Origin: Bacteroides sp.
Lineage (GTDB): Bacteria > Bacteroidota > Bacteroidia > Bacteroidales > GCA-2748055
Direction of reading: 5' to 3'
Length of the DNA: 64,000 nucleotides
NCBI GenBank assembly: GCA_011056635.1
Contig: DSEO01000153.1
Location: 7,563-71,562, forward strand
Part shown: piece after piece, positions 3,848 through 37,532 of the stretch
Numbering within the stretch: position 1 is the stretch's first letter
Layout: every line of letters begins with the position of its first letter
Notes under the pieces: generated by a model
The model's database searches: none
The model's input: the letters and a program-made list of their open reading frames with translations, nothing else
What the model was told of the DNA's origin: nothing
Translations under genes and position numbers: made by a program

Positions 3848-4864
3848 ATGCAAAGAAATATCAAACCCGCCGCAGCGATCATGCTTCTCATGATCCTCTT
3901 CTCCCTGTCCGCTTTCTCCCGGTTTCCCGGAACTACCGAATGGATCCTGACAGACGGGAACCGTTTTGTGAATGAGTCCGGCGAAACAGTCATTTTCCGG
4001 GGCGTCAATATCCGCGATCCCCACAACCTGGAAAGCGAGGGGCACTGGACCAGGGCGCATTTCGAAGAAGCAAGCAGGTGGGGAGCGAATGTGATCAGGC
4101 TTCCGGTGCATCCTGGTGCCTGGCGGGCCAGGGGCGCCGAAGCTTATCTTCAACTGGTGGACCAGGCGGTCCGGTGGGCACGCGAGCTCGGGCTTTACCT
4201 GATCATTGACTGGCATTCCATCGGGAACCTGAAAGAAGAAAAATTCCAGCATAGCATGTACGTGACCACATTCGGGGAAACGAAGGAGTTCTGGGATATC
4301 GTTTCCGGTCGCTATGCCGGGGAACCGGTTGTCGCCATGTATGAGCTGTTCAATGAACCGACCGTATCGGGAGAGCGGTTCGGGGAGATGACCTGGGCAG
4401 AATGGAAGGCGATGAATGAGGAAATGATCCGCATCATCAGGGAGAACCATCCCCGGTCGGTCATCCTGGTTGCGGGATTCGACTGGGCCTATGACCTCAC
4501 CCCGGTAAAGGAGGATCCCATCGATAAGCAGGGCATTGCTTATGTGAGTCACCCTTACCCCCAGAAACGCAGCGCACCGTGGGAGGACAAATGGGAGCAT
4601 GACTGGGGTTTTGTGGCGGACACCCACCCGGTGATCCTGACGGAGATCGGTTTTGCCCTCCCGGAAGAAAAAGGAGTGCATATGCCGGTCCAGGGAGACG
4701 AAACCTACGGGAAAGCCCTGGTGGATTATGCCTCGGACAGGGGCATCTCCTGGGTGGTATGGTGCTTCGACCCCGAATGGTCCCCTTACATGTTCACCGA
4801 CTGGGATTATACCCCCACCCGGCAGGGCGCATTTTTCAAGAAAGTGATGACAGGCGTGGAATAG
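3848..4864 (+). CDS. Glycoside hydrolase family 5 (cellulase-type), secreted
   Basis: Has a signal peptide. GH5 landmarks are present: VIRLPV, IIDWH, acid/base ELFNEP and nucleophile region VILTEIGF. Starts at an ATG with an intact frame. Confidence 0.8.
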   Translation: MQRNIKPAAAIMLLMILFSLSAFSRFPGTTEWILTDGNRFVNESGETVIFRGVNIRDPHNLESEGHWTRAHFEEASRWGANVIRLPVHPGAWRARGAEAYLQLVDQAVRWARELGLYLIIDWHSIGNLKEEKFQHSMYVTTFGETKEFWDIVSGRYAGEPVVAMYELFNEPTVSGERFGEMTWAEWKAMNEEMIRIIRENHPRSVILVAGFDWAYDLTPVKEDPIDKQGIAYVSHPYPQKRSAPWEDKWEHDWGFVADTHPVILTEIGFALPEEKGVHMPVQGDETYGKALVDYASDRGISWVVWCFDPEWSPYMFTDWDYTPTRQGAFFKKVMTGVE

Positions 4865-11320: not shown

Positions 11321-11326
11321 AGAAAA

Positions 11327-11438: not shown

Positions 11439-11442
11439 TTCC

Positions 11443-13078: not shown

Positions 13079-13286
13079 AAGCGTGCAGCATGTGTTGCTG
13101 ATCACGCAAGATGCTCTTGCCCTGCTATTTAAGTAAAATATATCCGTGCGGGCAGGTTTATATTCATTAAAAATATGACGCCGCGTATCAATCTTGCAGG
13201 TATTTTCCTCTTCTGCATTGAAAAAAATTTATATCTTGGTATTCAGCATTCTTTTCACATTTTATAACCTATGTTTAACTAAACTT

Positions 13287-17207: not shown

Positions 17208-17224
17208 CTTTAAGCAATGAATTG

Positions 17225-19230: not shown

Positions 19231-21102
19231 TTATTCCTCAAAATATTGGATGTACCAGTTATTCTCGTCCATCAGCAGGTCGTAGATTGCCTCTCTCTGT
19301 CCGGACGGGAATTTCGCCGATACCCTGCTGGCCAGGTAGGATGGGTCGTTTCTTCGTTCTGCCACGCGCATAAGGTCATAAAACCTTTCCCCCTCAAAAG
19401 CGAGTTCACGCACCCTTTCCTCCAAGATAAGATCTTCCAGATATTTTTGCTTAGCCGGGAAATTTCCTGAATAATCTTTATATCCTGTGATCGCGTTGGT
19501 AAAAGGATGGTGTAGATAGATGATATTACCTACATAGATACCATCGCGTGTGCTGCCTAATCCAACGCGACCCCTCACTCCCTGCTGGGGCCTGCTGGGC
19601 AAAACTGAATAATTGGAGCCGTCATTGACCAGGTTAACAGCTTCGGCTGTGCTGGTTCTGACAAGCCCACCCCTGAGTGCTGCCCAGTATGTGTAAACCT
19701 CTGCCAGGTAGAGGTGAATCCCGGCAGCCCGGTAAAGGATATAAAATGCATCCTGATCAAACAGCTCCCGGCCGATGGAATATTTAAATATGATCGTATC
19801 CATTCCCTCCATGATCACCCTTGAACTGTGTTCGTCCCCTTTGGCTCTCAGGGTAAACATATTCTCATAATCCTCTTCTGTGATCGGAATCCCGTTCCGT
19901 ACATAGAGATATGATGATCCAAAACCTCTATAGAAATCGGTCGGGGTGCCAGGAAATATCATCCTGGTTTTGCTGGGAAAGCTGAGGTCCTCGTCCATTA
20001 CCTGTCCGCGCCAAACGGATTCCCAGTTAAATACAGCTTTATAGCTGGGTTTCAGCATATACTGATGCGGGGTCCATGGTTCAAAGAATTGCTGAAATTG
20101 GTTTTGTTGAAAGTCTGCCTTGTTGAACCATATGGTATAGATATGTTCCCTGCTGTCCACCGAAGTAAAAATATTTCGCCAGCCCATAGAACTGAAGCTG
20201 TTGTCAAGCTGATACCTGTAATTCTCTGTGGTATTGTAAATAATCTGTTCAAAATGTTCCGCCGCCCTGACCAGGTCACCCTGGGTCAGGTACATGTGTC
20301 CGAGCAATGCATGCCTGGCCCATTCACTCCAGATGGTTACCTCCCACGAAATATCATTGTTTTCTACATAATGATTCACTCCCACTGCTTTCAGATGCTC
20401 CATCTCGTAGGTGAATCGATCAACGACCATCTCCAGGTCGTAATACTGTTTTTCCAGTTCAATGGGCTTATTCTCAATGGTATCGTTATAATAACCGTCC
20501 TTGGCAAAATCGATGTAGATGCTATCCGTATACGTACCCGATGAGTTCACATAATCTTTAATCTCATCATAGGTGGCCAGGGATTCATGAATGTAAGGCA
20601 CCTTTCCATAGATCCTTACCGCGTTAAAGTAGGTCCATGCCCTCATGCATACTGCCTCACCGTACAGCCTGTCATAGTTTGTAACCTGGCTCTCGGGATC
20701 AATTACCTCCGGATGCTCTCTTAAAATCACCCGGATAAAATTGTTACAGGCTGCAATGAGTTTAAACATATTGGTTGGATCAGCGTATTTGTTGGTCTTG
20801 GATACATTGAATTCATAAACCTCTATCATGTCCGTGCTGGCCCTGGGAGTTATGTTGACCAGATCCCCCCTCAGTTCACCAAGGATAAATAACTGTTCCA
20901 CGAGCTTTTGCTGCAGGCCGTACAGTCCCATCTCCACAGATCGATACTCATACCAGTCATCGTACAGCTGTTCCTCGGTAATATATAGTTCCTGCTCCGG
21001 ATTCAGGAACTTTTCACAGGAAGCAAACAGGAACAGGGAAATGATAGTTATCCCCAGACAAATGCTGTATTTCCTTCTCACTCTAAATCCATTTTTCACC
21101 AT
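19231..21102 (-). CDS. SusD/RagB-family outer-membrane lipoprotein
   Basis: Lipobox LFLFASC. TPR-like SusD body, including a C-terminal RVRELAFEGERFYDLMR motif. It immediately follows a SusC-like gene. Confidence 0.85.
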   Translation of the reverse strand: MVKNGFRVRRKYSICLGITIISLFLFASCEKFLNPEQELYITEEQLYDDWYEYRSVEMGLYGLQQKLVEQLFILGELRGDLVNITPRASTDMIEVYEFNVSKTNKYADPTNMFKLIAACNNFIRVILREHPEVIDPESQVTNYDRLYGEAVCMRAWTYFNAVRIYGKVPYIHESLATYDEIKDYVNSSGTYTDSIYIDFAKDGYYNDTIENKPIELEKQYYDLEMVVDRFTYEMEHLKAVGVNHYVENNDISWEVTIWSEWARHALLGHMYLTQGDLVRAAEHFEQIIYNTTENYRYQLDNSFSSMGWRNIFTSVDSREHIYTIWFNKADFQQNQFQQFFEPWTPHQYMLKPSYKAVFNWESVWRGQVMDEDLSFPSKTRMIFPGTPTDFYRGFGSSYLYVRNGIPITEEDYENMFTLRAKGDEHSSRVIMEGMDTIIFKYSIGRELFDQDAFYILYRAAGIHLYLAEVYTYWAALRGGLVRTSTAEAVNLVNDGSNYSVLPSRPQQGVRGRVGLGSTRDGIYVGNIIYLHHPFTNAITGYKDYSGNFPAKQKYLEDLILEERVRELAFEGERFYDLMRVAERRNDPSYLASRVSAKFPSGQREAIYDLLMDENNWYIQYFEE

Positions 21103-21110
21103 GATTATCC

Positions 21111-24100
21111 TTATAAACCAATTTTAATACCTGCAATGAACTGTCGTGGCTGCGGTGTTAACCCATAGTCTATCCCCAGAAAGAGTGGGGAGCTTGAATA
21201 TGCAAATTCCGGGTCATAACCCAGGTAACTTTTTTGCGTAAATATATTGCTGACCGAAATATAGAATTCTGCACTTTTAAACAGGAGGAATTGATCGGGA
21301 ACCCTGTAATAAAGCGAAATATTCTTCACCCTGAAATAGGATCCATCCTCGATCCATCTTGTAGAAAAATCGGCATTCCCCATGGGATCATTCCAGGAAG
21401 CCCTGGGTACATCTGTTTCCATGCCTTCATATTGCCACCTGTTCAACACATGAATGCTTTGATTGGACAGTCCCGACATTTCCTCATTTTTATATCGTAA
21501 ATAATTGAATATTTCATTTCCAAAGGTATAATACAAAGTAGTACTCAGCGTCCACCTTTTAAAGGACCAGACATTGGTCAGTCCCCCGAAATGATCGGGT
21601 TCAGGGGACCCGATCACCGTCTTGTCATATTCGTTGATAAAACCGTCGGGAGTCCCGTATGGTCCTGAGAGGTCCTCATACATCGCATCACCCGCGCCAT
21701 AGGGGATCCCCTTGTAATTTTTGAGATTTGCACCAGAGGCCTGTTCTGATGAAGAAAATACACCTTGATACACATAACCATAAAAACTGTTGGCCGGAAA
21801 ACCTTCCTGGATGATCTTCTGCCCGCCAGGTACATCGTATATGAGTTTATTTCCCTTGACCTCAGCTACTTCATTGCTCATCTTAGTGAAGTTGGCCTGA
21901 ATATCCCAGTGAAAAGAGGGATGATCGATGATACGCATAAAGGTACTCAGTTCAACTCCGTGGTTCAGGATCTGGCCCCCGTTCTCTATGATAAAATCAT
22001 ACCCGAAATAGGCATCTATGGGGGTGAATATGATCATGTTATCTGTTTTGGATGTAAAATAGTCCGCAGTAACCATGAACCGGTTACCCAGTAATGAAAC
22101 ATCGATACCCCCGTTAATTTGTCCAACGGTCTCGTAAGTAAGCTCATGATTGGTAAGGAGGGCGGGAAAAAGTCCGGTGGTCTGTCTGAACTTGACTACT
22201 TCATAATACTCTTTCGCACTGATTTCTCCAATATCATCATTCCCGGTTTTTCCTGCCGCGATCCTCAATTTCAGGTTTTCGATCCAGGGTAAATTTCTCA
22301 GGAATGGCTCATTGGACAACCTCCAGGCCAATCCGGCCGAATAAAACAGGCCGAACGGTTGGCCTCCGATCATGATCGTGCTGACCGCTTCATCTCCAAG
22401 CCTGGAAGAACCATCCAGGGACAGACTTGCCGATAGCAGGTATTTGTCCCTGAAGGAATAGGAAACGTTCTCATAAAAAGACACCCAGTTCCAGTTCCGG
22501 TTGTTGCCTCCAATTTCACGAAGGTTATTTTGTCCGTCCTGCAAGGCCCGGTATTCATCATTCTCATGTGCATTCTTGGTCAGGCCCCAGTCAAACTGAT
22601 ATTTGTTGGAGAGGATATTGACGCCTGTATTGGATGAGATGGAGTGGTCCGTCCCAAGCACCCTGCTGAAAAGCAGAGATGTATTGTTATACAGGGAATT
22701 CAGATCATTATTGGATGCCTTGGATACATTGAAAGCTTCCTGGTTATAATAGCGTTCCATACCCTTGTTCGGAAGAAACTGCAGCTCTTTCAGTACATCA
22801 TAATTGAGGCTGAATTTACTGATCACTCTCATGTACCTGTTAATGGTCCCTTCAATCCCAAGGGTTGCGATAAAATTATAATTGGTATTGCTTGCAGTGT
22901 AGTTTTCTATCACAGCCAGAGGATTACTGATCCCGATATCATCAACCTCGGATAGTTCAGAAATCTCTTTACCCTCTATATCATATTGGTAAGGATTAAG
23001 GAGCGGGGATTTGGCAAGGCTCGCCAGAATGGGACTGGTTTCAGCCCCCAGGGCTGATTCTTTCAATGAAGCGGAATTGTAGTTAAGTGATACACCCGCA
23101 TTCATTTTCAACCAGGTAAAAATATTCAGAAGACTGACAAACCGGAGGTTATATCCATTGAATCCGGTGTTCTGGATAATGCCGTCCCCACTCATGTATC
23201 CGAAGGAAAGTCCGTATCTTGCGATCTCATCCCCTCCTTTTACCTTCAGGTTCATACCATAGAATGAGGAATTTTGAAATATCAGCCTTTGCCAGTCCGT
23301 GTTATGCAGATAATCAATATAACGATCATCATCCTCTTCCAGGAAAAGACTGGGGTAATTTTCACGAATATCCTCCTCCCACATTCCCGAGGAAAAGAGT
23401 ATCTCATTCATCAGTGTTTTATGCTGACTTGCATTCATCTGCGGGATCAGGTTATCTGGAGACAGGGAATATCCTGCCCTGGCATTCACTTCAATACTGG
23501 TCTGGGTGACGCTGGGATCCAGCGTTTCTATGAAGATGATCCCGTTGGAGCCCTTGGAGCCGTATGCTGCACCGTATACGGGATCTTTAATAATGTTTAT
23601 ACTGGAGATGTCAAAAGGATTGACAGACAGCAGGGGATTATATTCAAACCCGCTTAAGTTGGATTCAAACAATCCCGGCGAGCTGAGCGGTATTCCGTCG
23701 ATGATGTACAGTGGCTGGTTGGTGGCGTAAATCGATCTGATCCCCCTCAGCTTGGTCACTGCCCCGCTTCCGATGTCACCAGACCGGTTAATCACTTCCA
23801 TCCCCGGAACCCGGCCCTGCATATACTGGTCAATGGTAACGGCGGAGGAATGCGGAAAATTATCGCTATTCAATTCAGTATGAGATGTGACAAGGTCCCT
23901 CCTTATTCGCATGAGAGAGAGAATGATCAGCGGATCATCGCCTGAGACCATTTCCTGATTGGAGAGAAATATGGTAATCTCCTTTCTGTTATTCAGATAA
24001 ATCCTTCTTTGTTTGTAATCCCCGGTGGGGGATATTAAAAGCCATGCCTTCCCTGAGGGGACAGTAAGGGTAAACTCTCCTGATACATCGGTAATGACCG

Positions 24101-24278
24101 GTGGCATGGTGGATCCGTCAATGGAAATGGAGACATTTTGTACAGGATCACCCCCGGAGGATTTGACAATCCCATGCAGATGAAGTGTATCCTGTCCATT
24201 CAGGCCGATCAGGGTTTGAATCAACAGGCACCCTGTAATCCACAGATATCTAGTGATTCTCATGCTGTTATTCATCAT
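21111..24278 (-). CDS. SusC-like TonB-dependent transporter
   Basis: Carboxypeptidase-regulatory-like N-domain (GIVKSSGGDPVQNVSISI...DVSGEFTL). Plug region (IIDGIPLS...GSKGSNGIIFIET). Beta-barrel ending in AGIKIGL. No STN domain. Confidence 0.9.
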   Translation of the reverse strand: MMNNSMRITRYLWITGCLLIQTLIGLNGQDTLHLHGIVKSSGGDPVQNVSISIDGSTMPPVITDVSGEFTLTVPSGKAWLLISPTGDYKQRRIYLNNRKEITIFLSNQEMVSGDDPLIILSLMRIRRDLVTSHTELNSDNFPHSSAVTIDQYMQGRVPGMEVINRSGDIGSGAVTKLRGIRSIYATNQPLYIIDGIPLSSPGLFESNLSGFEYNPLLSVNPFDISSINIIKDPVYGAAYGSKGSNGIIFIETLDPSVTQTSIEVNARAGYSLSPDNLIPQMNASQHKTLMNEILFSSGMWEEDIRENYPSLFLEEDDDRYIDYLHNTDWQRLIFQNSSFYGMNLKVKGGDEIARYGLSFGYMSGDGIIQNTGFNGYNLRFVSLLNIFTWLKMNAGVSLNYNSASLKESALGAETSPILASLAKSPLLNPYQYDIEGKEISELSEVDDIGISNPLAVIENYTASNTNYNFIATLGIEGTINRYMRVISKFSLNYDVLKELQFLPNKGMERYYNQEAFNVSKASNNDLNSLYNNTSLLFSRVLGTDHSISSNTGVNILSNKYQFDWGLTKNAHENDEYRALQDGQNNLREIGGNNRNWNWVSFYENVSYSFRDKYLLSASLSLDGSSRLGDEAVSTIMIGGQPFGLFYSAGLAWRLSNEPFLRNLPWIENLKLRIAAGKTGNDDIGEISAKEYYEVVKFRQTTGLFPALLTNHELTYETVGQINGGIDVSLLGNRFMVTADYFTSKTDNMIIFTPIDAYFGYDFIIENGGQILNHGVELSTFMRIIDHPSFHWDIQANFTKMSNEVAEVKGNKLIYDVPGGQKIIQEGFPANSFYGYVYQGVFSSSEQASGANLKNYKGIPYGAGDAMYEDLSGPYGTPDGFINEYDKTVIGSPEPDHFGGLTNVWSFKRWTLSTTLYYTFGNEIFNYLRYKNEEMSGLSNQSIHVLNRWQYEGMETDVPRASWNDPMGNADFSTRWIEDGSYFRVKNISLYYRVPDQFLLFKSAEFYISVSNIFTQKSYLGYDPEFAYSSSPLFLGIDYGLTPQPRQFIAGIKIGL

Positions 24279-25803
24279 AAGGAATAAAGTCTATATAATC
24301 AATGACCAGGCCATTGGAGGTTACCTGCCCCGGTCCCACGTAAACAAATTTCACTGTCAGGTCTCCGTATTCGTTCTTGTTGTCAACCCAGCAATCCCAT
24401 CGGTTAAAACTACCCTCCGGTCTGTATCTTATCCCTGTCACACTTCTCCAGAGCTCCCTGTTAATGACATAATCGAAGTAATCGATTTCAGCGACAAGTT
24501 CATTATTCACATACACCTCATAGATCCCTCCCACGTACATATGGGTTCTGACAACCATCAGGTATTTTCTTGGAAAGAGGGTTTTAATATTGAACTCCAG
24601 AGAGAAATTCCCATTGTATCCCTTTGTAAAGCTTACTCTCATCAGGGAATCATTGGAAGAAGTGGCTCCATACTCTTTCAGTGGTGCGAACGAAACGTCA
24701 CTTGTCACGGTAACCTCCTCTCTCCAGGCATATCTGTTTATTCCAATTTCCTGGAGCAGCCATTCCCCTTCCATCCTGTTAGCACCTTTAAATAATGTAT
24801 CAGGAACCACAAAATCCTCATAGTTATAAGCATATCCATTGCTGCAAAGGACTTTATCGGCAGGTGTATAATAAATGTACACGCTGTCTCCCAGGATATT
24901 CTTCATCTTCAGGGTATCAGGTAAGGGGGGTGGAATAAATACTTCCGGTTCAAGCATATTATCAAATACCCCGCGATCCAGCAAGTACGGTATAAGCACA
25001 TCATATTGCCAGGTTAACGGAATATCCGAATAATCCTGATACAGACTCCCGAGAGACTGTGCCATATCAGTCAGCGCTGCATTGTAATCATCCTCTCTGG
25101 GGAAAACGATTGTTGCCGTCTTGTTCCGGAATTCCTTGCTTACCGGGAAAAATTCATACTCAAACATATTGAAGATCTCAGCAACCGTATCGTATATGGT
25201 GTTGCCAAATTCATCAAAACCTATCGCCCGGCTCAGCTCTTTGTCAATGATGACAGAATCGTGACTATCGATATAGGCGGTCAATATGGGATTTTCTGAT
25301 GCAAAAAATTCGTAAAGATTGGGCCTGGGCACGGCTACCCGTTCCATTACATAATATTTGCCATTTTTGTAAAGCGGACTCTCCAGCGCAACAGGAATTC
25401 CGTCGAAGTAAATAGCTCCACCTGTATTTTCAAAAAGGGCATACTTTTCAGAAAGGGTCTGGACCATCTTTTTACCCGAAATGCTCCTGGACTGGATCAA
25501 GTGACGTGAAATTTGATAGCCTAAAATGAACGGTGACACTGATCCCGTATCCGTAAAATTAGTTATCGCCTGGTTATCCGGAATAAACAGCGTATAGGGG
25601 TCATCTTTCAGGAATAATGTATCATACCTGAACTCCTTCATGTATTGTACATAAAGTGATAGATCCGGATGCTGCTTTATCGCCTCCCAGATATTCATAT
25701 CTACCGTTTCAGATTGTTTCTGGTAATGCTCATTCCACCTATCTTCGCAGGAGTAAAGGAAGAAAAGGAGCATTCCCACAGCTGAATATTTGATCAAATT
25801 CAT
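24268..25803 (-). CDS. Fasciclin (FAS1) domain lipoprotein
   Basis: Lipobox LFFLYSC. FAS1 signature YTLFIPDNQAITNF. Confidence 0.65.
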   Translation of the reverse strand: MNLIKYSAVGMLLFFLYSCEDRWNEHYQKQSETVDMNIWEAIKQHPDLSLYVQYMKEFRYDTLFLKDDPYTLFIPDNQAITNFTDTGSVSPFILGYQISRHLIQSRSISGKKMVQTLSEKYALFENTGGAIYFDGIPVALESPLYKNGKYYVMERVAVPRPNLYEFFASENPILTAYIDSHDSVIIDKELSRAIGFDEFGNTIYDTVAEIFNMFEYEFFPVSKEFRNKTATIVFPREDDYNAALTDMAQSLGSLYQDYSDIPLTWQYDVLIPYLLDRGVFDNMLEPEVFIPPPLPDTLKMKNILGDSVYIYYTPADKVLCSNGYAYNYEDFVVPDTLFKGANRMEGEWLLQEIGINRYAWREEVTVTSDVSFAPLKEYGATSSNDSLMRVSFTKGYNGNFSLEFNIKTLFPRKYLMVVRTHMYVGGIYEVYVNNELVAEIDYFDYVINRELWRSVTGIRYRPEGSFNRWDCWVDNKNEYGDLTVKFVYVGPGQVTSNGLVIDYIDFIPYDE

Positions 25804-25809
25804 AGCCAG

Positions 25810-27384
25810 TTATTCCTTATATGGTTCAAATCTGATGAGATCCCAGCTGAATTTTCCCGGGATCAACGATTTTATCTGAATGGTATGTCCTTCATACTGA
25901 AGAAAATTTATGACTCCCAGATTCTTCATCGCAAAAGGATTATTTGCGGACCCGCCCGAAGATAAATCCACCAGTCCGCCCACATATTTACCATCCAGTA
26001 AAACTTCTACCACCGCATTATTCTGGTCCAATGACTCAGCGCGCAAAAACATCGAATACAAACCCTGCACAATTTTTGGGATCCTGTATGTAATGGTGAA
26101 GTCCCCATCCAAATATAGGTAATCTCCGCCCCAGGCAGGATGCTCCGGATCCCCCGTTTCAATAAAATAGAGATCTGTTCCGCCCCACGTAAAATTATTC
26201 AGTGCCGCTGTATCTTCAATCAGATATTCTCCAGGTTCTTCACGATATTCATTGAGAAGGGGTTCATCGTAGAATTCATAGGTCAGAATTGCACGGGAAG
26301 GTGGTTGCTGACGGAGAACCTGGTTAATAAAATGTATTGCTCCGCTCTGGGTCAAAACATTGGAATGATCATAGTAAAATCCTATGAAATCGATGATTGT
26401 GGTATCCACACCGTTGATAATGGTGTCGAAGTTTTCCTTCCCTTTATTAATCATTATGTCCAGGCCTGTTCCATTTATATTCAAAGGAATATCCGAAAAA
26501 GTCGAATAATTGGTGGCCAGGTCCACAAAATCGTCCATAAATATGCTCCCCTCCAGCATATGGTAGCTCACATACTGGTAGAGTGGGTTGCTGGGTACCT
26601 CATAATTATCATCTTCCGGACTGACAGCGGAGACCAATGCATTAAATGAACCGATCCCACTTCTCTGATATACAGAATCAGGCTCGGCCAGCAGGGTAAA
26701 TGGACGGGCATCCGTTACTTCCCTGAGATTTATATCCATTTGCTCGCTTAATCCCGTTGCATCTGCTGCAGATCTGAAAATAGAGAAACCGTCATTCGAC
26801 TCGAGCCAGTCATAGGTGGTTCTGGTGACAGGCACAAGCGCATTCCCGATCAGGTGAATATAACCGTTTGAGACTTCAATGTTCGTGTAAATAACAGGAG
26901 CCTGGTTGTTGATTTTATAATAGGAGGAATCAGGTTCAATTGCAAAACTGACCGTAAGGATATCACCAGAAAGTGTTCGCTCGGGAAATGCTCCAAAGGG
27001 AAAATCATCTGTATGTATGGCCATATTCACCACATGGTACCTGCTCAGTGCGCGCACATACTCTGAGTCGTTCAACAAACCATCCAGGGAATTGAACTGA
27101 TCGTTCCCCGCAATAAATTGATCGATTGCTTCATTGTCAGGCAAAAACAATGTGTACCCTATTCCATTGGGATTGTATGCACTGAGTGTCTTATCAATGC
27201 CCCCCTTTTCAAGAATGGCAAGAAAACTCGAGTATGCTGAATCGTTCTCTACAATGTAATCATAGATGGTCATATCGAGCATATCCTCGAAACCTGCATC
27301 AATAATATCATGATCACAGGAAAATAATCCGGCTGCCACTATCAGTAAAATACCTGCAATACCTGTGTATATTCTTTTCTTCAT
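25810..27384 (-). CDS. Fasciclin (FAS1) domain lipoprotein
   Basis: Lipobox AAGLFSC. FAS1 signature GYTLFLPDNEAIDQF, followed by HVV...G.I.L. Confidence 0.7.
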   Translation of the reverse strand: MKKRIYTGIAGILLIVAAGLFSCDHDIIDAGFEDMLDMTIYDYIVENDSAYSSFLAILEKGGIDKTLSAYNPNGIGYTLFLPDNEAIDQFIAGNDQFNSLDGLLNDSEYVRALSRYHVVNMAIHTDDFPFGAFPERTLSGDILTVSFAIEPDSSYYKINNQAPVIYTNIEVSNGYIHLIGNALVPVTRTTYDWLESNDGFSIFRSAADATGLSEQMDINLREVTDARPFTLLAEPDSVYQRSGIGSFNALVSAVSPEDDNYEVPSNPLYQYVSYHMLEGSIFMDDFVDLATNYSTFSDIPLNINGTGLDIMINKGKENFDTIINGVDTTIIDFIGFYYDHSNVLTQSGAIHFINQVLRQQPPSRAILTYEFYDEPLLNEYREEPGEYLIEDTAALNNFTWGGTDLYFIETGDPEHPAWGGDYLYLDGDFTITYRIPKIVQGLYSMFLRAESLDQNNAVVEVLLDGKYVGGLVDLSSGGSANNPFAMKNLGVINFLQYEGHTIQIKSLIPGKFSWDLIRFEPYKE

Positions 27385-27392
27385 CTTCTTGC

Positions 27393-28874
27393 CTAATTAT
27401 CATAATACGGGTTCTGGACCAAATTCTTGTTTCGTTCAATTTCCGATTCAGCGATGGGGAGATACCAGCCGAGCGGATTGGTGAGTTTGGCGGCCAGGAT
27501 CCGTTTCTGTGTTGCCGGAACATTGCTTACAATGATCTCGATAAGTATGGTTTTCCTGGCATAATTGTTTCGTCTTCCCATCCTCACCAGATCAAACCAT
27601 CGTTTCCCTTCAAAAGCAAGCTCGAGTGCCCGCTCCTGCATGATGGCATCCTCATATGCCGCTGCCGAAGCAGGCAGACTGAGCGGCGGAACATCGGCGC
27701 GGAAGCGGATCTCGTTGAGTATATCAAGGGCTTCCTGGAAACGGCCCAGCTGAGAGAGTGCTTCAGCTTTCATTAACATTACATCAGCGAGTCTGTATAC
27801 CACCCAGTTACAACTTCGCTGTTCCGAACCAGGCCGGGTAGTGTTGCCATCCGGGGCCCGGCCCACATATTTCCAGATGGTGAAATCATTTTCACCGTGT
27901 TTTCTGACAGAGGCATCCTCACCCCGGTACAATTCCCTGGTAAACTCCTTGGCAAATACTTCAATGGCTTTCTGGCTGGGATCGTATTGATGGCTGTTAT
28001 ATTCGGTGGTCCCATACATCCCGTTAGGTTGGTTCAGACTTTCATCAAACTGAAATTCGAAGATCGACTCGAGGGAGTTTCCGGGATAATAGATCTCAAA
28101 CCATTTTGCACTTGGCTGAAGTACAATATCCTCATTGCTTTCAATATTTGCCACATGTCTCAAAACAGCTTCATAATCAAACATCCAGAGCGCGATATCT
28201 GCCAGCAGTGCGTCTATTGCGGCCTTGGTCGCTCTTCCCTTGATTTCCTCCTGGGTCGGGTAACCATCTTTGGTGGCATATTTGCGATACGCTTCCAGAT
28301 CTTCAATCAGGTATCCCAGAATTTCTTCCTCCTCAGTCTTGGCTGGATAAAAATCGGCATTATCAGTTTCGGTAGGTTCAGTGATATAAGGAACATCTTT
28401 GAAGATACGCACCAGGTAGAAATAACTGAGACTCCTGAGAAAATAGGCTTCTGAAAGATACCTCTGAAGCAGATAATCTGAGAATGTATCATCTTTGTCC
28501 TGCACAATAGGCGCATTCTTTATCACTTCATTGCAATAATTGATAATTTCATAAAAACTTGACCAGTTACACATATAGTTATCAGAGTAAATATTGCCCT
28601 CGGCAATCCTTTGTTCCTGCCAGTCTTGACTGTAATCCCCGGTCACCATATCAGCCCGGATCTCCCCGTATTTAAATAGCATCTCATCCATCTCGGCGAA
28701 TGTTTCATAGGCTCCCATGATCACTGCATGAACATCTTCTTTTGTTTGCCAGAATTCTTCTCTGATCAATCCCTGCGGGGGGATAAGCTCCATCCACTGC
28801 TCACAGGAAAAAGGTACAGTCAGGATCAAACACACAAGGAAATATTTCATCGCCATTCTCATACCGTATGTCAT
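27393..28874 (-). CDS. SusD/RagB-family outer-membrane lipoprotein
   Basis: Lipobox TVPFSC. SusD motifs include ERALELAFEGKRWFDLVR. Directly downstream of a SusC-like gene. Confidence 0.85.
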   Translation of the reverse strand: MTYGMRMAMKYFLVCLILTVPFSCEQWMELIPPQGLIREEFWQTKEDVHAVIMGAYETFAEMDEMLFKYGEIRADMVTGDYSQDWQEQRIAEGNIYSDNYMCNWSSFYEIINYCNEVIKNAPIVQDKDDTFSDYLLQRYLSEAYFLRSLSYFYLVRIFKDVPYITEPTETDNADFYPAKTEEEEILGYLIEDLEAYRKYATKDGYPTQEEIKGRATKAAIDALLADIALWMFDYEAVLRHVANIESNEDIVLQPSAKWFEIYYPGNSLESIFEFQFDESLNQPNGMYGTTEYNSHQYDPSQKAIEVFAKEFTRELYRGEDASVRKHGENDFTIWKYVGRAPDGNTTRPGSEQRSCNWVVYRLADVMLMKAEALSQLGRFQEALDILNEIRFRADVPPLSLPASAAAYEDAIMQERALELAFEGKRWFDLVRMGRRNNYARKTILIEIIVSNVPATQKRILAAKLTNPLGWYLPIAESEIERNKNLVQNPYYDN

Positions 28875-28883
28875 TTCATCAGT

Positions 28884-31800
28884 TTAAAAACCCACTAAAA
28901 CACTGAGTGTCAACATTTTTGGAGGAGGAGTATTGGCCCGGTCCACACCGATCCAGAATGGATTACTGGCATCCTGTCCCACTTCAGGATCCTGACCGCT
29001 GTACCTGGTAAAGGTAAACAGTTTCCTGGCGCTGACTGCAAAGCTCATGGATCTTACCCTCAACCTCTCACACAGGTCCCTCCGCAACCTGTATCCCAGT
29101 TTCATATTGATCAACCTTAAATAATCACCCGGTTCAACGTAGCGGTCAGACCCCAGGTTATTGGCGGGATGGTTTAGGTAGGCTCTGGGCAACATGCCTT
29201 CCTCGTCCTGTCCCTGCACCCGCCAGCGGCTCAAAACTGCCTTACTCTGGTTGTTCCTGTCGAGCATCCCCTCGGTTTCGATGGCCACACCGTTGATGAT
29301 ATCGAATCCAAGCCGGTAATGGAATGCCACCGAGAAATCAAAGTCCTTGTAGTCAAACTGTGTCCCGAATCCGCCTGTTAGATCGGGGTTCGAATCACCA
29401 ATATATACCACATCGTTCAGATCAATGATCCCGTCCTTGTTAATATCCTCATAGATGGCATCACCACCTCTGAAGATATAGGTACCCTCATAGGTCATAG
29501 GGATAGGGACACCATTCTCATCTAAAATCAAATTCCCATTGGCATCCCTGGCCAGGGCATCTTTATCGGTAGGATAAACTCCCAGGTACCTGAATCCAAA
29601 AAAGGACCCGATAGGCTCGCCCTCGATGACACGCTGGGGGTACTCGCCATTGTTGATGGAAGTCGATCTTTCCGTATTGAAGTTGTCGGGAAGGTCCACA
29701 AATGAGTTCACATTCTGCGCAGTGTTGAAATTGACTGACCATTTGAAATTGTCCCGCTGCAGCACCTCGTAATCCAACATTAATTCCCATCCTTTGTTCT
29801 GCAGAGCACCTCCATTGAAGTACCTGAGCGTACCATACCCGGACGATGTGGGTATATTATAATTATCAAAAAGCAGATCCGAGGTGGTCTTCAGGTATAC
29901 ATCGGCTTCCACATAAAGGGAATAATCAAACAGATTCAATTCAATACCCACATCGTAGGATTCGATATTTTCCCATTGCAGATTATTGAGCTGTATCTGC
30001 CTGGGAATAATGGCCGGATTTTTTATATAGTTCCCGTCATTGGACGATTCATAGGTAGCAAAACGGGCGTAAGTATCTGAGGGTTGCCTCCCCGCCACTC
30101 CCCAGCTTGCCCTGAGCATGCTTTCACCGAGCACCTGAAACCTTTGCATGAAGGATTCACTCGAGAATCTCCACCCCAGTGATACCCCTTTGAATAATCC
30201 CCACCGGTTGTTGATCCCAAATGCAGAATGAGCGTCTGCCCGCAGTATGGTCTGGACCATGTAGCGATCCTTAAATTTATAGTTAATATTGGCCAGGGCT
30301 CCGAGAGAGCGCGTTTCGCCCGAGCCTGTTCCTATCCAGTTGATCTGTGCGTTGATTGACGGATCCTGGACATCTGTGCTGGGCACCTTATTGCTCTGAA
30401 TATTCATCCACTCGTAACTGGACTGATTCGTAATCCAGCTGATGGCTCCGGTAAGGACATGCTTCTCATCCTTAAAGGGGGAATTAAATGCCAACTGGCT
30501 TTCCGTTCTTATCTGCATGTCAAAATTATTCCCTTCATCTGCCTTGTTGACATTCCACGCCAACCAATCGGCGCCAAAAGCGTTGTAAGGGAGAAAGGCT
30601 GATTCCTTTCTCCCCTGGTACTGGACGGATATTGTTTCCCTCAGGGTAAGCCACTCAAGAAGATTATACCTCAAGCGAAAGGTGTTTTGTAACTGGTTGC
30701 TGACCTGATCGTTTCTCCCCAGGTTCGAAATAGCTACGGGATTGTAGTAAGTGCTCCCTGACCCCTGGTAACTGTTGATCGGAGTAAAATACTCCCCAGT
30801 GAGTTCTCCCTTGTTGTCATACTCCCATATACTCATATTGGGGGCTTTGATATAAGCCATGTTCCTTATATTTCTTCCGGCCAGTGATAGATTCCCCTCC
30901 GTATTATTCCTCGAATAACTGAACTGAATGCTAAATAGCAGTTTCCTTGAGAGATAATAGTCCAGATTTACTCTGGTCGAAAATCTTTTCGAACTTGTGT
31001 TGATGGTGGTCCCTCCTTCGTCTATATAACTGAATGAGGTGAAATACCTGGTTTTCTGCCCTCCTCCGGAAATTTTAAAATAATGGTCGTTCGTCATTGA
31101 ATTCTGAGTGATAGCTCCTAACCAATCTGTGTTCGCCGAATAGTTATAGAAATCGCTATAATCCCTGTCATATGCTATCTCGGGGGGTATTTCGAAAATA
31201 CCCCTGGCATTATGCCACTCCTCAAGCTGCAACATGATATATTCATCACCATTGAGCATGGGGATAGCCGGCGGCTGGAAATTCAGACTGTTCTTATACT
31301 GATAATCAAATTGAACTTTCCCCAGTTTCCCGGAATGAGTCTCGATCAATAGAACTCCGTCGGCTCCTCTTGATCCATATACAGCAGTGGATCCCGCATC
31401 CTTCAGTATTTCAATTGACTTAATATCCTGAACAGCAATATTTATCAGTTCACTGATGTCTTCGCTATCTGCTGAACTCAGGTCAAAATCCTGGGATACA
31501 CGAAATTGAGGAATACCGTCGACAACAATAAGAGGCTGGTTGTTCCCCATTGAGCTAAGCCCCCTGATCACCAGCTGAGAACCTGATCCCGGATCACCGG
31601 AGGCAGAGATGATGTCCAATCCACTCACTTTACCCTGAAGCGCATCGGCAGCAGAGAGAGCCCCTGCTTCCTGCATCTCTATCAGGTCCACCTTTACAGA
31701 GGATGAAGCTTTATCCCTTTCGTCAATGTTGGTCAGGTTGAAATTGGACTTGGCCACTGCGGTTACAGTTACTTCCTCCAGCTCCACATTGGAAGTTTCA

Positions 31801-32105
31801 AGCTCAATCATCAGGGGTCCCGAAACCCTGTGGTCTATTTCTTTGGTGTTATACCCAATGACACTGATCCTGATCACATTTTCAACATTCCTCATCTCCA
31901 GGATAAAATCGCCGTTCACATCGGAGATGGTCCCGTTGATAATGCGGTTTTCTTTATCAAATTCAATGATATTGGCGCCAATGACCGGTGTATTTTCATT
32001 CTTATCCATGACTCTTCCCCTGATGATTTTGCTTTGCTGAGAGAAAGCCGGGAACGCACATCCCAGCGCCAACAGTAAGATAAACGCTTTTTTCCCCATG
32101 TTCAT
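28884..32105 (-). CDS. SusC-like TonB-dependent transporter
   Basis: Probable start MNMGKKAFILLLALGCAFPAFSQQ; the ORF track starts 13 codons earlier and overlaps the upstream gene. CarbopepD_reg-like N-domain (IIRGRVMDKNENTPVIGANI), a plug (VVDGIP...GSRGADGVLLIET), and a barrel ending in LSVLVGF. Confidence 0.9.
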   Translation of the reverse strand: MNMGKKAFILLLALGCAFPAFSQQSKIIRGRVMDKNENTPVIGANIIEFDKENRIINGTISDVNGDFILEMRNVENVIRISVIGYNTKEIDHRVSGPLMIELETSNVELEEVTVTAVAKSNFNLTNIDERDKASSSVKVDLIEMQEAGALSAADALQGKVSGLDIISASGDPGSGSQLVIRGLSSMGNNQPLIVVDGIPQFRVSQDFDLSSADSEDISELINIAVQDIKSIEILKDAGSTAVYGSRGADGVLLIETHSGKLGKVQFDYQYKNSLNFQPPAIPMLNGDEYIMLQLEEWHNARGIFEIPPEIAYDRDYSDFYNYSANTDWLGAITQNSMTNDHYFKISGGGQKTRYFTSFSYIDEGGTTINTSSKRFSTRVNLDYYLSRKLLFSIQFSYSRNNTEGNLSLAGRNIRNMAYIKAPNMSIWEYDNKGELTGEYFTPINSYQGSGSTYYNPVAISNLGRNDQVSNQLQNTFRLRYNLLEWLTLRETISVQYQGRKESAFLPYNAFGADWLAWNVNKADEGNNFDMQIRTESQLAFNSPFKDEKHVLTGAISWITNQSSYEWMNIQSNKVPSTDVQDPSINAQINWIGTGSGETRSLGALANINYKFKDRYMVQTILRADAHSAFGINNRWGLFKGVSLGWRFSSESFMQRFQVLGESMLRASWGVAGRQPSDTYARFATYESSNDGNYIKNPAIIPRQIQLNNLQWENIESYDVGIELNLFDYSLYVEADVYLKTTSDLLFDNYNIPTSSGYGTLRYFNGGALQNKGWELMLDYEVLQRDNFKWSVNFNTAQNVNSFVDLPDNFNTERSTSINNGEYPQRVIEGEPIGSFFGFRYLGVYPTDKDALARDANGNLILDENGVPIPMTYEGTYIFRGGDAIYEDINKDGIIDLNDVVYIGDSNPDLTGGFGTQFDYKDFDFSVAFHYRLGFDIINGVAIETEGMLDRNNQSKAVLSRWRVQGQDEEGMLPRAYLNHPANNLGSDRYVEPGDYLRLINMKLGYRLRRDLCERLRVRSMSFAVSARKLFTFTRYSGQDPEVGQDASNPFWIGVDRANTPPPKMLTLSVLVGF

Positions 32106-32115
32106 GTATGAATGA

Positions 32116-34425
32116 TTATTTGGAATCAAGTTGTTCAATGTCAAGTACCCTGTCCGTTTGGTGAATCACGCTGTTAATAATGACAACCGGAAAGACTTCC
32201 GTCCCTTCGCCTAAATTACGCCCGGTCATCAGGTTGGTAGTTTCCGCTTCCTCAACATTTAAGAATGCGTTCCCCGCCCTGTCGGGGATCGTGATGATAT
32301 CTATTCCGGGATTGATATAGATGCTGGAGAATACCACAGAGAATTCTGTGGAAGATTCATCAATCCTTGTTGTCTTATAATATCCCGGGCTTGTACTCCC
32401 GTCGGTAAAAATAAGATTGCCCTGAACAAAATGAAGCATCAGCAGATTGCGCAGGTCTGCGATTGAAAGTGTATCGGCACGATAGGCAGTCATGACCGAA
32501 TCGTTTGGCACAAAAACCGTGTAATTTTCTGTTTCGGACAAGAACGTATAACGGTTCTGTGAATCAATTGTCAGACCTGCCTTCCTGAGTAAATTGTGAA
32601 ATACGGGATAATTACTTGAAATCTGGACGAAGAGATTTGAAGCAGAGAAACTTAACCAGTTCCTGATCCTGTAGGTGATCCCGTTATCTGCATCTGTGCT
32701 GATCTGCTCAGGAAATTCGGGTACAACACTCTCTCCCCGGTACCCTTCAGTGGTGGGTGCCGTTCCAGCAACTTCGCCAGTTAAATTATTCACAACCAAA
32801 TAGTTTCCCGCCAGATTCTGAATGAATTCTTTCCGGGCTATCCCGAAGGGAGTCCTTTTGCCGACATGATTCAGGATCAGCGTCCGTAATTCGTTGACAT
32901 TTAAATTATAACGTTGTGATGTTGCCGCATGGCCCTGGTACAGATGAAAACTCTCCGTGGAATAATCATACCAGAGCGAAGAGTCTTGCTGACAATCAAC
33001 GTCATTCTCGACAAACAGCATGTACTGTTCATTTTCTCTCTTAAGGGCAGGCAGCAACCCTGATTTTTCAATTGCATACATGGAATATGAATATCCCCTG
33101 AGAAGATATACAGGACCGGATACGCTACTGAAGGCTCTTGGTATCAGGGCTTTGCCAAGACCAATGAACGTGGCATTGCTTCCATATTGTTTGTCCAGTA
33201 TGTCATCCTGATCAATGTAGACCCTGTCATCCTCCCCGTTGATAAATCCTTCCGTAAAATCTGAGGGATAGATCGGATTCGTTGAAAGATGCGTGTTGGC
33301 AATGATTCGTTTGATATGCAGGGGAGCACTCTCCAGGTTACCCCATCGGCCCGTACCTGCAAGAAAATCGTTTATTAGCTGATTAAGTGCCTGATCAGCA
33401 GGAGCAGCAACTCCATGATGGTACCTGATGGATACATTTCCCGGTAAACCGAAAGTACCCCTGGGAGCAGTGGTTCTCTCGTTCAGGATGTCAAAGGCCA
33501 GATCAGGATAAGTAACATCAAACAGCGAATCCACAACATAACCTTCCCTGGCCCCGGGCTGATCGAACGTAGCCTCTTCATTATAACGAAATTCCGGAAA
33601 CCTGTTGAGAAGACCAAGGAATGCAGCATAAGATTGACCGTTTCGGTCCGACTCCAGGATCTCGTATGCATTATCCAGTGGGTCAACCACCCTGTCGATG
33701 TTGTAAACAAATCCATTTTCAGCGAAGATCTCATCTCCCACGATCCTGGCGCCTGCATAATATATATCCTTTGAACTCTCGAATGGACGATCAAAATAAA
33801 AAGTGTAGTCGTCTGAGTTGAGATCGTAAATTTCAAAGTAATCCCTGAAAAATACAGGAGCATACTTTCGGGAGTCAGTAAGGTGAACCCTGTACAAATT
33901 GGACTGAAGCGTATCAACAATCCGAATGGATTTATCCACTTCACTGTAACCTATACCGAGTTTCCGGTTCTTATTAAGAAGCAGAGTCTCCCTTTTATAC
34001 CCCCGTGGCTTGTCATTGTTAATGTCAAGGGTATCGATCCACCCCCAGACATCAAGTTGCTGAAGCTGGCTCTTACTCCATGGATTCTGGACAATATGGT
34101 ATTTTACAAGCCGCTGAAGTGCGTCATCGGGTAAATCCTCAGGGCTGTTATAAAGGGGATGCTGCTGGAACCAATTGCTAAATGCTTCATTGTTGGGTGC
34201 AAAAACTGTGTAACTGCCCGATCTGTTTATGATCGTATCATACCCGGATAACTCAACGCATCTAGTAAAGGTTGAAAGATCCGGCTGATCCAGCAATTGC
34301 GTGTAGACCTTGCCTGCAAGCCAATCCGGACGGCTGTACTTATCCTCACCTTTCCAATCGGGGTTACAACCTCTGAAGATCAAAAACCCCAGGCCCATTA
34401 ACATGATTATCCTTGCCTTAGTCAT
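32116..34425 (-). CDS. Multi-FAS1 (fasciclin) domain lipoprotein, first gene of the locus
   Basis: Lipobox FLIFRGC. At least two FAS1 signatures (GSYTVFAPNNEAFSNW and ENYTVFVPNDSVMTAY). 769 aa. Confidence 0.7.
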   Translation of the reverse strand: MTKARIIMLMGLGFLIFRGCNPDWKGEDKYSRPDWLAGKVYTQLLDQPDLSTFTRCVELSGYDTIINRSGSYTVFAPNNEAFSNWFQQHPLYNSPEDLPDDALQRLVKYHIVQNPWSKSQLQQLDVWGWIDTLDINNDKPRGYKRETLLLNKNRKLGIGYSEVDKSIRIVDTLQSNLYRVHLTDSRKYAPVFFRDYFEIYDLNSDDYTFYFDRPFESSKDIYYAGARIVGDEIFAENGFVYNIDRVVDPLDNAYEILESDRNGQSYAAFLGLLNRFPEFRYNEEATFDQPGAREGYVVDSLFDVTYPDLAFDILNERTTAPRGTFGLPGNVSIRYHHGVAAPADQALNQLINDFLAGTGRWGNLESAPLHIKRIIANTHLSTNPIYPSDFTEGFINGEDDRVYIDQDDILDKQYGSNATFIGLGKALIPRAFSSVSGPVYLLRGYSYSMYAIEKSGLLPALKRENEQYMLFVENDVDCQQDSSLWYDYSTESFHLYQGHAATSQRYNLNVNELRTLILNHVGKRTPFGIARKEFIQNLAGNYLVVNNLTGEVAGTAPTTEGYRGESVVPEFPEQISTDADNGITYRIRNWLSFSASNLFVQISSNYPVFHNLLRKAGLTIDSQNRYTFLSETENYTVFVPNDSVMTAYRADTLSIADLRNLLMLHFVQGNLIFTDGSTSPGYYKTTRIDESSTEFSVVFSSIYINPGIDIITIPDRAGNAFLNVEEAETTNLMTGRNLGEGTEVFPVVIINSVIHQTDRVLDIEQLDSK

Positions 34426-34696
34426 TACAGCGGTTATCTTAAACAGTTATTATATTTGTCAATCCACATTCTAAAATTCAAGTCGCTCACCAATCCATCA
34501 ACTTCCCCAAATGCATTCGATTGTCTATCTTTGATCTACGCATTTTTTAAAGCCTGGCCATTGGCTAAATTTAAAAAAAAAAATAATTATCTCTGCTATG
34601 ATGGTTGTTTGGTGTTTTTTTACAGCAATATTTGCTTTCCTTCTTCATCCTTATGTTTTCATTGGCTATTATTGTTCAATCAATTATGATAGACCA

Positions 34697-37498: not shown

Positions 37499-37532
37499 TG
37501 GGACCGCAAAAAAAGTTGAACCTTAAATACGC

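Follow-up and report, generated by a model that had tools for sequence, protein, structure and literature searches.

In Bacteroides thetaiotaomicron, genes BT4145-83 have been assigned to rhamnogalacturonan-I (RG-I) and are RG-I-responsive (Martens et al. 2011). In the annotation tables of a 2026 study of this species (PMC13088901, supplement), the polysaccharide utilization locus (PUL) concerned, PUL77, is labelled 'rhamnogalacturonan-I backbone' and includes a fasciclin protein (BT_4163), a SusC/RagA protein (BT_4164), a RagB/SusD protein (BT_4165), a DUF5108 domain-containing protein (BT_4166), a FAS1 domain-containing protein (BT_4167, UniProt Q8A054), a TonB-dependent receptor (BT_4168) and a hypothetical protein (BT_4169). 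The same tables give BT_0274 as the fasciclin protein of another B. thetaiotaomicron PUL. According to a review summarizing Luis et al. 2018, BT4167 is a surface glycan-binding protein (SGBP) that binds RG-I, and RG-I oligosaccharides enter via the BT4164/65 and BT4168/69 complexes. Here, we report on a block of seven genes, hereafter the heptad, found in a 64-kb stretch of DNA from Bacteroides sp. (assembly GCA_011056635.1, contig DSEO01000153.1; the window), which encodes two SusC/SusD pairs and three lipoproteins with fasciclin (FAS1) domains, named FAS769, FAS524 and FAS511 after their lengths.

The CHARACTERISED counterpart of the heptad is apparently BT_4163-BT_4169, with the same annotated architecture. 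PUL77 has the seven-gene order of the window, with BT4167 in the fifth position, like FAS511, and a divergent gene in the SusD position at the seventh. There, the block lies within a 39-gene PUL (BT4145-BT4183) that also encodes a hybrid two-component regulator as well as surface lyases and numerous pectin-directed periplasmic glycoside hydrolases (GHs), whereas the window operon has neither regulator nor enzyme inside, and its neighbours are GH5 and GH9 cellulases of the kind that the type IX secretion system (T9SS) exports and a protein with a lamin-tail domain (LTD). An association with pectin (RG-I) enzymes like that of PUL77 was found neither in the window nor among the recurrent neighbours of the clade to which the window belongs.

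Other described systems share parts of this organization. The chitin utilization locus of Flavobacterium johnsoniae (ChiUL) combines two SusCD pairs with a T9SS-secreted key enzyme, as we propose for the window, but it lacks FAS1 proteins, acts on chitin, encodes a two-component regulator of its own and has its two pairs adjacent to each other without intervening SGBP genes; so far as tested, ChiUL and the heptad are not homologous as a block. The levan and dextran utilisomes of B. thetaiotaomicron (SusC2D2 with SGBP and GH lipoproteins) resemble the window in joining SusC/SusD to glycan-binding surface lipoproteins, and are the source of the solved chains nearest to the window SusCs (8aa4 and 5t3r). 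Unlike the window, these classical utilisomes have a single SusCD pair, SGBPs built from Ig-like or other beta-domains and not from FAS1, and a surface endo-enzyme in the complex. Finally, a protein of Salinimicrobium terrae that NCBI names 'glycan-binding surface protein' joins three FAS1 domains to a known glycan-binding module, SGBP_B_XBD, at its end, and is a lipoprotein encoded just after a SusC, a SusD and a 356-aa gene. It differs from FAS524 by its terminal PF18329 domain, of the xyloglucan-binding-domain type, and by its setting, a GH26/GH27 mannan-type locus with one SusCD pair and no heptad.

That FAS1 lipoproteins serve PULs as binding components is, thus, implied by existing annotation and by one experimental study. 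In full-text literature searches, we found no discussion of the FAS1 nature of PUL lipoproteins or of a phylum-wide heptad, and a review on FAS1 covers bacterial FAS1 proteins but not the PULs of Bacteroidota. We consider it probable (about 0.78) that the seven genes form one operon for the outer-membrane capture-and-import core of a polysaccharide utilization system, that the enzymes of this system act in trans and that the block is an ancient module of the Bacteroidota.

Gene content and conservation of the heptad

The operon spans positions 19231-34425 of the window. From the table of open reading frames (ORFs) and their translations, it consists of seven intact minus-strand ORFs in the order FAS1 (769 aa), SusC, SusD, FAS1 (524 aa), FAS1 (511 aa), SusC and SusD. 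The genes (g1 to g7) and the region upstream are as follows:

34425..32116, minus strand: FAS769 (g1), 769 aa, four tandem FAS1 domains, lipoprotein predicted to be surface-exposed
32144..28884, minus strand: SusC1 (g2), 1086 aa from TTG, SusC/RagA-type TonB-dependent transporter
28874..27393, minus strand: SusD1 (g3), 493 aa, SusD-like lipoprotein, partner of SusC1
27384..25810, minus strand: FAS524 (g4), 524 aa, two FAS1 domains and a C-terminal beta-sandwich resembling carbohydrate-binding modules (CBMs) of families 6 and 35, candidate SGBP
25803..24268, minus strand: FAS511 (g5), 511 aa, divergent paralogue of FAS524, in the position of BT_4167
24278..21111, minus strand: SusC2 (g6), 1055 aa, second SusC/RagA transporter
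21102..19231, minus strand: SusD2 (g7), 623 aa, long and divergent SusD-like lipoprotein, partner of SusC2
34426..34597, no strand: presumed promoter region, the 172-nt divergent intergenic region upstream of FAS769

When counted from the first ATG behind each signal peptide, the junctions are gaps of 6-10 nt; there are overlaps of 29 nt with the TTG start chosen by the ORF finder for SusC1 (32144) and of 11 nt with the ATG of SusC2 (24278). The true start of SusC1 is likely to be M14 at 32105, which would give a 10-nt gap. The 172-nt region is the sole sizeable non-coding gap flanking these seven tightly packed genes, which are presumably co-transcribed from it; no clear promoter motif was recognized in it by eye. 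Lipoboxes could be read from the translations of all five non-barrel proteins (IFRG-C-NPDW in FAS769 and VPFS-C-EQW in SusD1; GLFS-C-DHD, FLYS-C-EDRW and LFAS-C-EKF in the other three), and in each of them acidic residues follow the lipobox cysteine. The three FAS1 lipoproteins are also placed as SGBPs usually are, FAS524 and FAS511 after SusD1 and FAS769 before SusC1. Gene order, coordinates, tight junctions and the three FAS1 lipoboxes had all been given in the initial annotation, and the ORF listing and translations agree with it. It had moreover claimed that the operon lacks enzymes, regulators and STN domains, and this was borne out: domains of GHs, polysaccharide lyases (PLs), carbohydrate esterases, peptidases or regulators were detected in none of the seven proteins by Pfam, NCBIfam or relaxed Pfam fragment scans, and Pfam found no STN domain in SusC1 or SusC2.

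Both transporters match TIGR04056 over their full length (685.6 bits for SusC1 and 593 bits for SusC2, NCBIfam) and contain CarboxypepD_reg and Plug domains in Pfam, with CarboxypepD_reg N-terminal in SusC1. SusD1 scored 129.6 bits with SusD_RagB, for which the cut-off is 23.1, and 54.9 bits with SusD-like_3; SusD2 is weaker, with 33 bits and 26.5 bits, respectively. A SusC-SusD pair, by which Sus-like systems are recognized, thus occurs twice in the operon (TIGR04056 plus SusD_RagB). We considered whether the two pairs arose by a recent tandem duplication and rejected this, because SusC1 and SusC2 are only 25 % identical (BLASTP) and SusD1 and SusD2 align at their ends alone; moreover, each SusC is nearer to the orthologue at its own position in other classes.

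For both FAS524 and FAS769, full-length homologues with 55-77 % identity number in the hundreds in uncultured Bacteroidales. Relatives of FAS524 were sought in one genome per GTDB species, which gave 153 species, and 80 of these loci were compared by tblastn with the seven window proteins. The gene order was identical in the 56 complete loci and in the 24 that are collinear but cut by contig ends, and rearranged in none, so this arrangement is far beyond chance. The carriers include Prolixibacteraceae, Mariniphaga, Draconibacterium, Roseimarinus sediminis DSM 28824, 'Bacteroidales bacterium 6E' and many metagenome-assembled genomes (MAGs).

A profile search of 1.84 billion cluster representatives retrieved 4903 relatives of FAS524 (289 of them at E <=1e-30), many of which are full-length lipoproteins of 500-570 aa. 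The search was repeated with an alignment of eight distant members, and the neighbourhoods of seven distant relatives (~25-30 % identity) were read. All seven lie in the same heptad, laid out as a FAS1 protein of ~680-830 aa, SusC, SusD, a FAS1 protein of ~505-640 aa, a third lipoprotein of ~450-600 aa, SusC and SusD. These distant carriers are Mucilaginibacter mali, Aestuariibaculum suncheonense, Echinicola salinicaeni, a JGI contig, two gut or food Bacteroidales contigs and a Dysgonomonadaceae MAG. In the six distant heptads compared by BLASTP, best matches were position-specific for all seven genes in every case: SusC1 scored 630-752 bits with the first SusC and 233-286 bits with the second, SusC2 scored 395-547 bits with the second and 263-343 bits with the first, and FAS769, FAS524, FAS511, SusD1 and SusD2 best matched positions 1, 4, 5, 3 and 7, respectively. 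This position-specific orthology indicates that the heptad either predates the split of Bacteroidia, Sphingobacteriia, Cytophagia and Flavobacteriia or has been passed around these classes as one unit. We take the block to be an ancient module that Bacteroidota share gene for gene and that has been re-used with different enzyme sets.

The distant loci also connect the window with PUL77. Two gut-type heptads carry DUF5108 at g4, the domain annotated in BT_4166, and their genes are position-specific orthologues of the window genes. DUF5108 (PF17133) maps to the C-terminal sandwich of some distant g4 proteins (87 bits in L088 and 18.5 bits in Mucilaginibacter). In the C-terminal fragment of the window g4 protein, no Pfam match to DUF5108 was obtained at E values up to 5; this fragment has the same position, and a beta-sandwich fold in the model described below. 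The architecture, whose novelty was implied in the initial annotation, therefore has a studied counterpart by annotation, with an SGBP reported at the fifth position; a characterized function for this architecture was among the findings that the initial annotation had itself named as counting against its reading. In practical terms, the seven-gene block can be annotated as one recurrent module and not as two unrelated SusCD pairs. It also offers a well-defined phylum-wide case of strictly co-inherited tandem SusCD pairs, and a good model in which to ask why a PUL has two transporters.

Two irregular sequences were met in these searches. In locus L064 (CAVVIO010000033.1, ~3300-15900), SusD1, FAS524 and FAS511 are followed on the other strand by inverted FAS511, FAS524, SusD1 and SusC1; this half-copy is probably a palindromic assembly artefact and not biology. 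A full-length FAS769 homologue with 56 % identity (protein P0220) is labelled 'Methanothrix sp.' in a MAG, almost certainly owing to binning contamination by a Bacteroidales contig.

Folds of the FAS1 lipoproteins

Pfam detected the Fasciclin domain (PF02469, gathering cut-off 22 bits) in the three lipoproteins, with 90.6 bits in FAS769, 85.6 bits in FAS524 and 23.9 bits in FAS511. An AlphaFold 2 model of FAS769, made from an alignment of 36 sequences, had a predicted local distance difference test score (pLDDT) of 82.6 and a predicted template-modelling score (pTM) of 0.79. In Foldseek, it resembled periostin and TGFBIp over ~760 columns (E ~1e-21), and all its matches at E <0.001 were FAS1-domain proteins except one mitoribosomal chain (E 5e-4). 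By this model, FAS769 consists of four FAS1 domains in a row on a lipid anchor, with no other domain. The eukaryotic proteins TGFBIp, periostin and fasciclin I match it over the whole length (E 1e-21), in fold and in having four domains in tandem; they are only 12-15 % identical to it, bind integrins or matrix, and have neither a lipid anchor nor a transporter partner.

The AlphaFold 2 model of FAS524 (pLDDT 78) contains two FAS1 domains (residues ~35-355), which resemble TGFBIp, periostin and fasciclin I, and a C-terminal beta-sandwich (~365-524). In Foldseek, the sandwich matched the xanthan-binding module 7ehg (E 8e-9), CBM35 (2w1w), CBM6 (8j3x), CBM36 (7ay3) and domain III of Cry toxins, the matches to 7ehg and the three CBMs having E values of 8e-9 to 1e-5 and holding at the level of the fold only. 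BLASTP aligned almost nothing of FAS511 with FAS524. The profiles of the two families, compared by hhalign, aligned end to end (residues 1-511 against 1-524, 453 columns, probability 96.8 %, E 2e-10), and for this reason FAS511 is best seen as an old full-length paralogue of FAS524 with the same architecture. A CBM-like terminal domain is thus predicted in FAS524, is expected by homology in FAS511 and is lacking in FAS769. The assignment of FAS1 lipoproteins to SGBP positions, made in the initial annotation, is strengthened by these two CBM6/35-like C-terminal domains. For annotation, it follows that 'fasciclin domain-containing' lipoproteins beside SusCD can be read as SGBP-type components.

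Catalytic domains hidden within the FAS1 proteins, a case that the initial annotation had raised against its own reading, did not appear in profile searches, in searches of PDB sequences or in the models of FAS769 and FAS524. Nine fragments of the FAS and LTD proteins, scanned with Pfam at a relaxed threshold (E up to 5), gave weak Fasciclin and Cadherin-like matches only, NCBIfam had no match for the FAS proteins, and PDB sequence searches with these proteins returned FAS1 proteins only and no enzyme. A hidden enzyme was therefore rejected.

The lack of an enzyme in the operon, together with these folds, also bears on whether the imported ligand is a carbohydrate at all. The pairs might instead take up peptides, as RagAB does, or a hydrophobic molecule of the kind held by FAS1 carotenoid-binding proteins, or the FAS1 proteins might serve mainly as adhesins. 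RagA is present among the solved relatives of both SusC proteins, and the fold matches include FAS1 carotenoproteins (AstaP) and adhesion proteins. However, the solved chains nearest both SusCs are the glycan importers 8aa4 and 5t3r, ahead of RagA, and FAS524 and FAS511 have the CBM-like C-terminal domain. In addition, each heptad neighbourhood that was examined contains carbohydrate-active enzymes (CAZymes) and/or glycan-sensing hybrid two-component regulators, not peptidases, and the B. thetaiotaomicron counterpart is a pectin system. We therefore regard a non-carbohydrate ligand, or a mainly adhesive role, as very improbable.

For the capture-and-import core that we favour, the FAS1 proteins would hold released oligosaccharides at the cell surface and pass them to the two SusCD pairs. 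FAS524 and FAS511 would grip glycan chains by their terminal sandwiches, the FAS1 domains being a stalk or an extra contact surface, and FAS769 would be a further accessory or scaffold subunit of the utilisome. Import would be TonB-powered, each SusCD pair taking a subset of the oligosaccharides and each SusD acting as a lid.

The lipid anchors of two of these proteins carry conserved motifs. In g1 proteins, (D/E)xYYxRPxxL stands directly after the lipid cysteine (34300-34370 in the window), and g5 proteins have CxDxWx(D/E)H, in a wider form C-x-(D/E)-x-W-x-(D/E)-H, at the anchor (25720-25750 in the window); both are conserved across four Bacteroidota classes (L083-L090). The stretch that follows a lipid-anchor cysteine is normally a variable linker, and for this reason the motifs may hint at docking onto the transporter. 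A more far-reaching proposal can be built on this. The heptad might be a single obligate heteromeric 'double utilisome', in which SusC1D1 pairs with SusC2D2 and the three FAS1 lipoproteins dock via their anchor motifs, and which has stayed intact since before the Bacteroidota classes diverged while being re-targeted by enzyme swaps. We advance this only tentatively and think it somewhat unlikely. If it were true, FAS1 arrays would be a distinct, undescribed structural class of SGBP scaffold, and the tandem SusCD pairs of many PULs would have a general explanation.

Neighbouring enzymes and the probable substrate

The enzymes of the proposed system would be encoded next to the operon or at some distance from it. 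The genes of the window that are relevant in this respect are as follows:

17222..19216, plus strand: secreted GH5+CBM6 endoglucanase (Cellulase 187.6 bits and CBM_6 41.1 bits in Pfam), convergent with SusD2 across a 14-nt gap
13194..17147, plus strand: LTD protein, 1317 aa, T9SS-secreted (LTD 32.4 bits, Por_Secre_tail 29.2 bits, TIGR04183, weak Cadherin-like)
7865..11320, minus strand: GH9+GH5 cellulase, 1151 aa (Glyco_hydro_9 168 bits, CelD_N, Cellulase 42.9 bits, Por_Secre_tail 32.9 bits), ~8 kb away, possibly associated
3848..4864, plus strand: GH5, 338 aa, cellulase-type, on the opposite strand to an overlapping unannotated ORF

The genes of the LTD protein and the GH5+CBM6 enzyme converge on the SusD2 end of the operon. 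As for CAZymes, by which a PUL is commonly recognized, none is encoded inside the operon, and the GH5+CBM6 gene lies on the other strand, 14 nt beyond its end. The solved chains nearest to this enzyme are endoglucanase H of C. thermocellum (CelH), FnCel5A and Thermotoga Cel5A, which are broad-specificity endoglucanases. A T9SS sorting domain (Por_Secre_tail/TIGR04183) is present in the GH9+GH5 and LTD proteins; in the GH5+CBM6 enzyme, the one next to the SusCD genes, the C-terminal ~80 aa resemble such a domain by eye only, and profile searches gave no match to it. In the LTD protein, a lamin-tail domain at the N terminus is accompanied by a second LTD-like segment and by cadherin-like beta-sandwich repeats, and no enzyme domain is recognizable; in the PDB, this protein had no sequence match beyond the sorting domain. 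Together, the GH5 gene at 3848-4864 and the GH9+GH5 fusion suggest a cellulolytic gene neighbourhood.

In the related loci of the clade, most of which leave ~3 kb visible per side, flanking ORFs were clustered and representatives were scanned against Pfam. The commonest neighbour was the LTD-T9SS protein, which adjoins the block in 30 loci, followed by a GH5-type cluster in 15 (with homologues of the window GH5 in 8, by tblastn) and by GH26 and GH9 enzymes, both with T9SS sorting domains, in 12 and 7 loci, respectively; GH31 and apiosidase-like genes are sporadic. A hybrid two-component regulator lies directly upstream in 11 loci, where it is co-directional, and also in Echinicola, Aestuariibaculum and L085. 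Outside the clade, the heptads sit in ordinary PULs. In Mucilaginibacter, the block is accompanied by GH95, GH43, GH2 and PL11; in Echinicola, by a hybrid two-component regulator, PL11 and GH115; in Aestuariibaculum, by a sulfatase, GH30, a GDSL esterase and a hybrid two-component regulator; and in a gut or food Bacteroidales contig, by GH95, a pectinesterase and DUF5123. As orthologous blocks elsewhere adjoin hybrid two-component regulators and CAZymes, 'no enzyme, no regulator' is a trait of this operon and of the layout of this genome, not of the module.

Because the usual neighbours in the clade are T9SS-secreted GH5, GH9 and GH26 enzymes and the LTD-domain T9SS protein, the enzymes of the system would be supplied in trans. 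Secreted and largely T9SS-dependent enzymes, namely the GH5+CBM6 (17222-19216) and GH9+GH5 (7865-11320) proteins, would depolymerize the glycan outside the cell, perhaps with the help of the LTD protein (13194-17147), before capture and import as described above. From these neighbourhoods, the substrate in the clade is most likely a plant-wall glycan of the beta-1,4-glucan or beta-mannan type. The initial annotation had suggested, as one possibility, that the ligand is degraded by enzymes from outside the operon, for example the neighbouring T9SS cellulases, and the recurrence of GH5, GH9, GH26 and LTD-T9SS neighbours in relatives agrees with this. Of its overall interpretation, capture and import with enzymes in trans is retained, the novelty that it implied is given up, and the lack of enzymes and regulators is read as local to this genome.

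The likeness to PUL77 raises another possibility, namely that the substrate is still pectic (RG-I-like), as in B. thetaiotaomicron, and that the adjacent cellulases are coincidental members of a general plant-wall degradation island. The heptad appears to match the core of an RG-I PUL, the Mucilaginibacter and Echinicola heptads adjoin a PL11 RG-I lyase, and the gut or food Bacteroidales heptad adjoins a pectinesterase and DUF5123. On the other hand, PL, GH28 and GH105 genes were found neither in the window nor, singly or as clusters, among the neighbours that recur in the 80 clade loci; GH5, GH9, GH26 and LTD-T9SS recur there instead. Identity to the pectin-linked heptads is only 21-40 %, and other heptads lie beside GH30, sulfatase and GH115 genes, so specificity evidently shifts. 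A pectic substrate is, in our judgement, unlikely here. One import core is combined with quite different enzyme sets: at one end are the pectin lyases of gut and soil taxa, at the other the T9SS cellulases and mannanases of sediment Bacteroidales. Current models are not overturned by these results.

Several points weigh against an import core with enzymes in trans, and against parts of our argument for it. No hybrid two-component, extracytoplasmic function sigma/anti-sigma or SusR-type regulator was found among the scanned ORFs of >=200 aa in the 64-kb window, and about half of the related loci have none of the listed enzymes within the visible ~3 kb flanks. The substrate is read from gene neighbourhood alone, again over ~3 kb flanks in most loci. 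The CBM-like label of the sandwich comes from the fold similarity of a predicted model at 12-20 % identity, and Pfam recognized no C-terminal domain in the window FAS proteins at E values up to 5. The link to the BT proteins runs through published annotation tables and gut Bacteroidales intermediates. Finally, FAS1 domains as such are not known to bind glycans.

The low-GC island and other genes of the window

The operon has a GC content of 45 %, against 54 % in the rest of the window and 55-56 % in the other SusCD pair of the window. It belongs to a sharp-edged block at ~13.0-36.0 kb (1-kb resolution), in which GC is 0.40-0.51, against 0.54-0.58 outside, and which contains, besides the heptad, the genes of the LTD-T9SS protein and the GH5+CBM6 enzyme as well as an agmatine-deiminase-like gene. 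In related genomes, the GC of the cassette and that of its flanks differ by a median of only ~1 point. Protein composition as the cause of the low GC was rejected, given the 55-56 % of the other SusCD pair and the relatives that lack a contrast between cassette and flanks. No tRNA genes, which could have marked the island ends, were found in the window. This ~23-kb unit looks like one that was horizontally acquired or replaced. An island that spans the heptad, the GH5 gene and the LTD gene together supports a functional link among them, and their apparent horizontal arrival suggests a mobile capture-and-import kit for plant-wall glycans.

Such a transfer could also have severed the operon from its enzymes and regulator upon entry into this genome, so that what is left would be a remnant that is silent or in decay. 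The low-GC, apparently horizontally acquired island and the 64-kb window without a regulator speak for this. However, the seven ORFs are intact, tightly spaced and of orthologue-like lengths, the island also carries the GH5 and LTD partners, and many related genomes keep the block intact without a regulator in the visible flanks. A remnant is, in consequence, scarcely credible, and we retain the view of the heptad as an import core.

The agmatine-deiminase-like gene of the island (PAD_porph; 34598-35875, plus strand, GC 0.40) is divergent from FAS769. It is not at the syntenic position in the closest relatives (L002, L003, L005 and L007), where a glycoside 3-dehydrogenase directly precedes FAS769, and it looks like an insertion. 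In the window, the region 36014-38327 (plus strand) encodes a glycoside 3-dehydrogenase of the BT_2158 family (NF058561, 869 bits) with a weak, sub-threshold match to a twin-arginine translocation (TAT) signal, followed by a 3-keto-disaccharide hydrolase; the two form an oxidative glycoside-cleavage pair, which is found upstream of the heptad in 6-7 relatives.

Two further GFO/IDH/MocA paralogues are encoded at 11443-12954 (minus strand) and 48278-49687 (plus strand), the latter with a sub-threshold match to a TAT signal. A cluster at 43874-54490 comprises a LacI-family regulator, a URO-D-like gene, two DUF6807 genes, a GFO/IDH/MocA oxidoreductase and the third SusC/SusD pair of the window (49803-54490, GC 0.55-0.56), and resembles a further Sus-like locus, one whose set of oxidative enzymes is unusual. 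Finally, a gene at 60207-63191 (minus strand) encodes a 994-aa protein with Golvesin C-terminal and fn3 domains, beside GT2, DUF4922, SpoIID-like and NamZ-like genes, and is unrelated to the operon.

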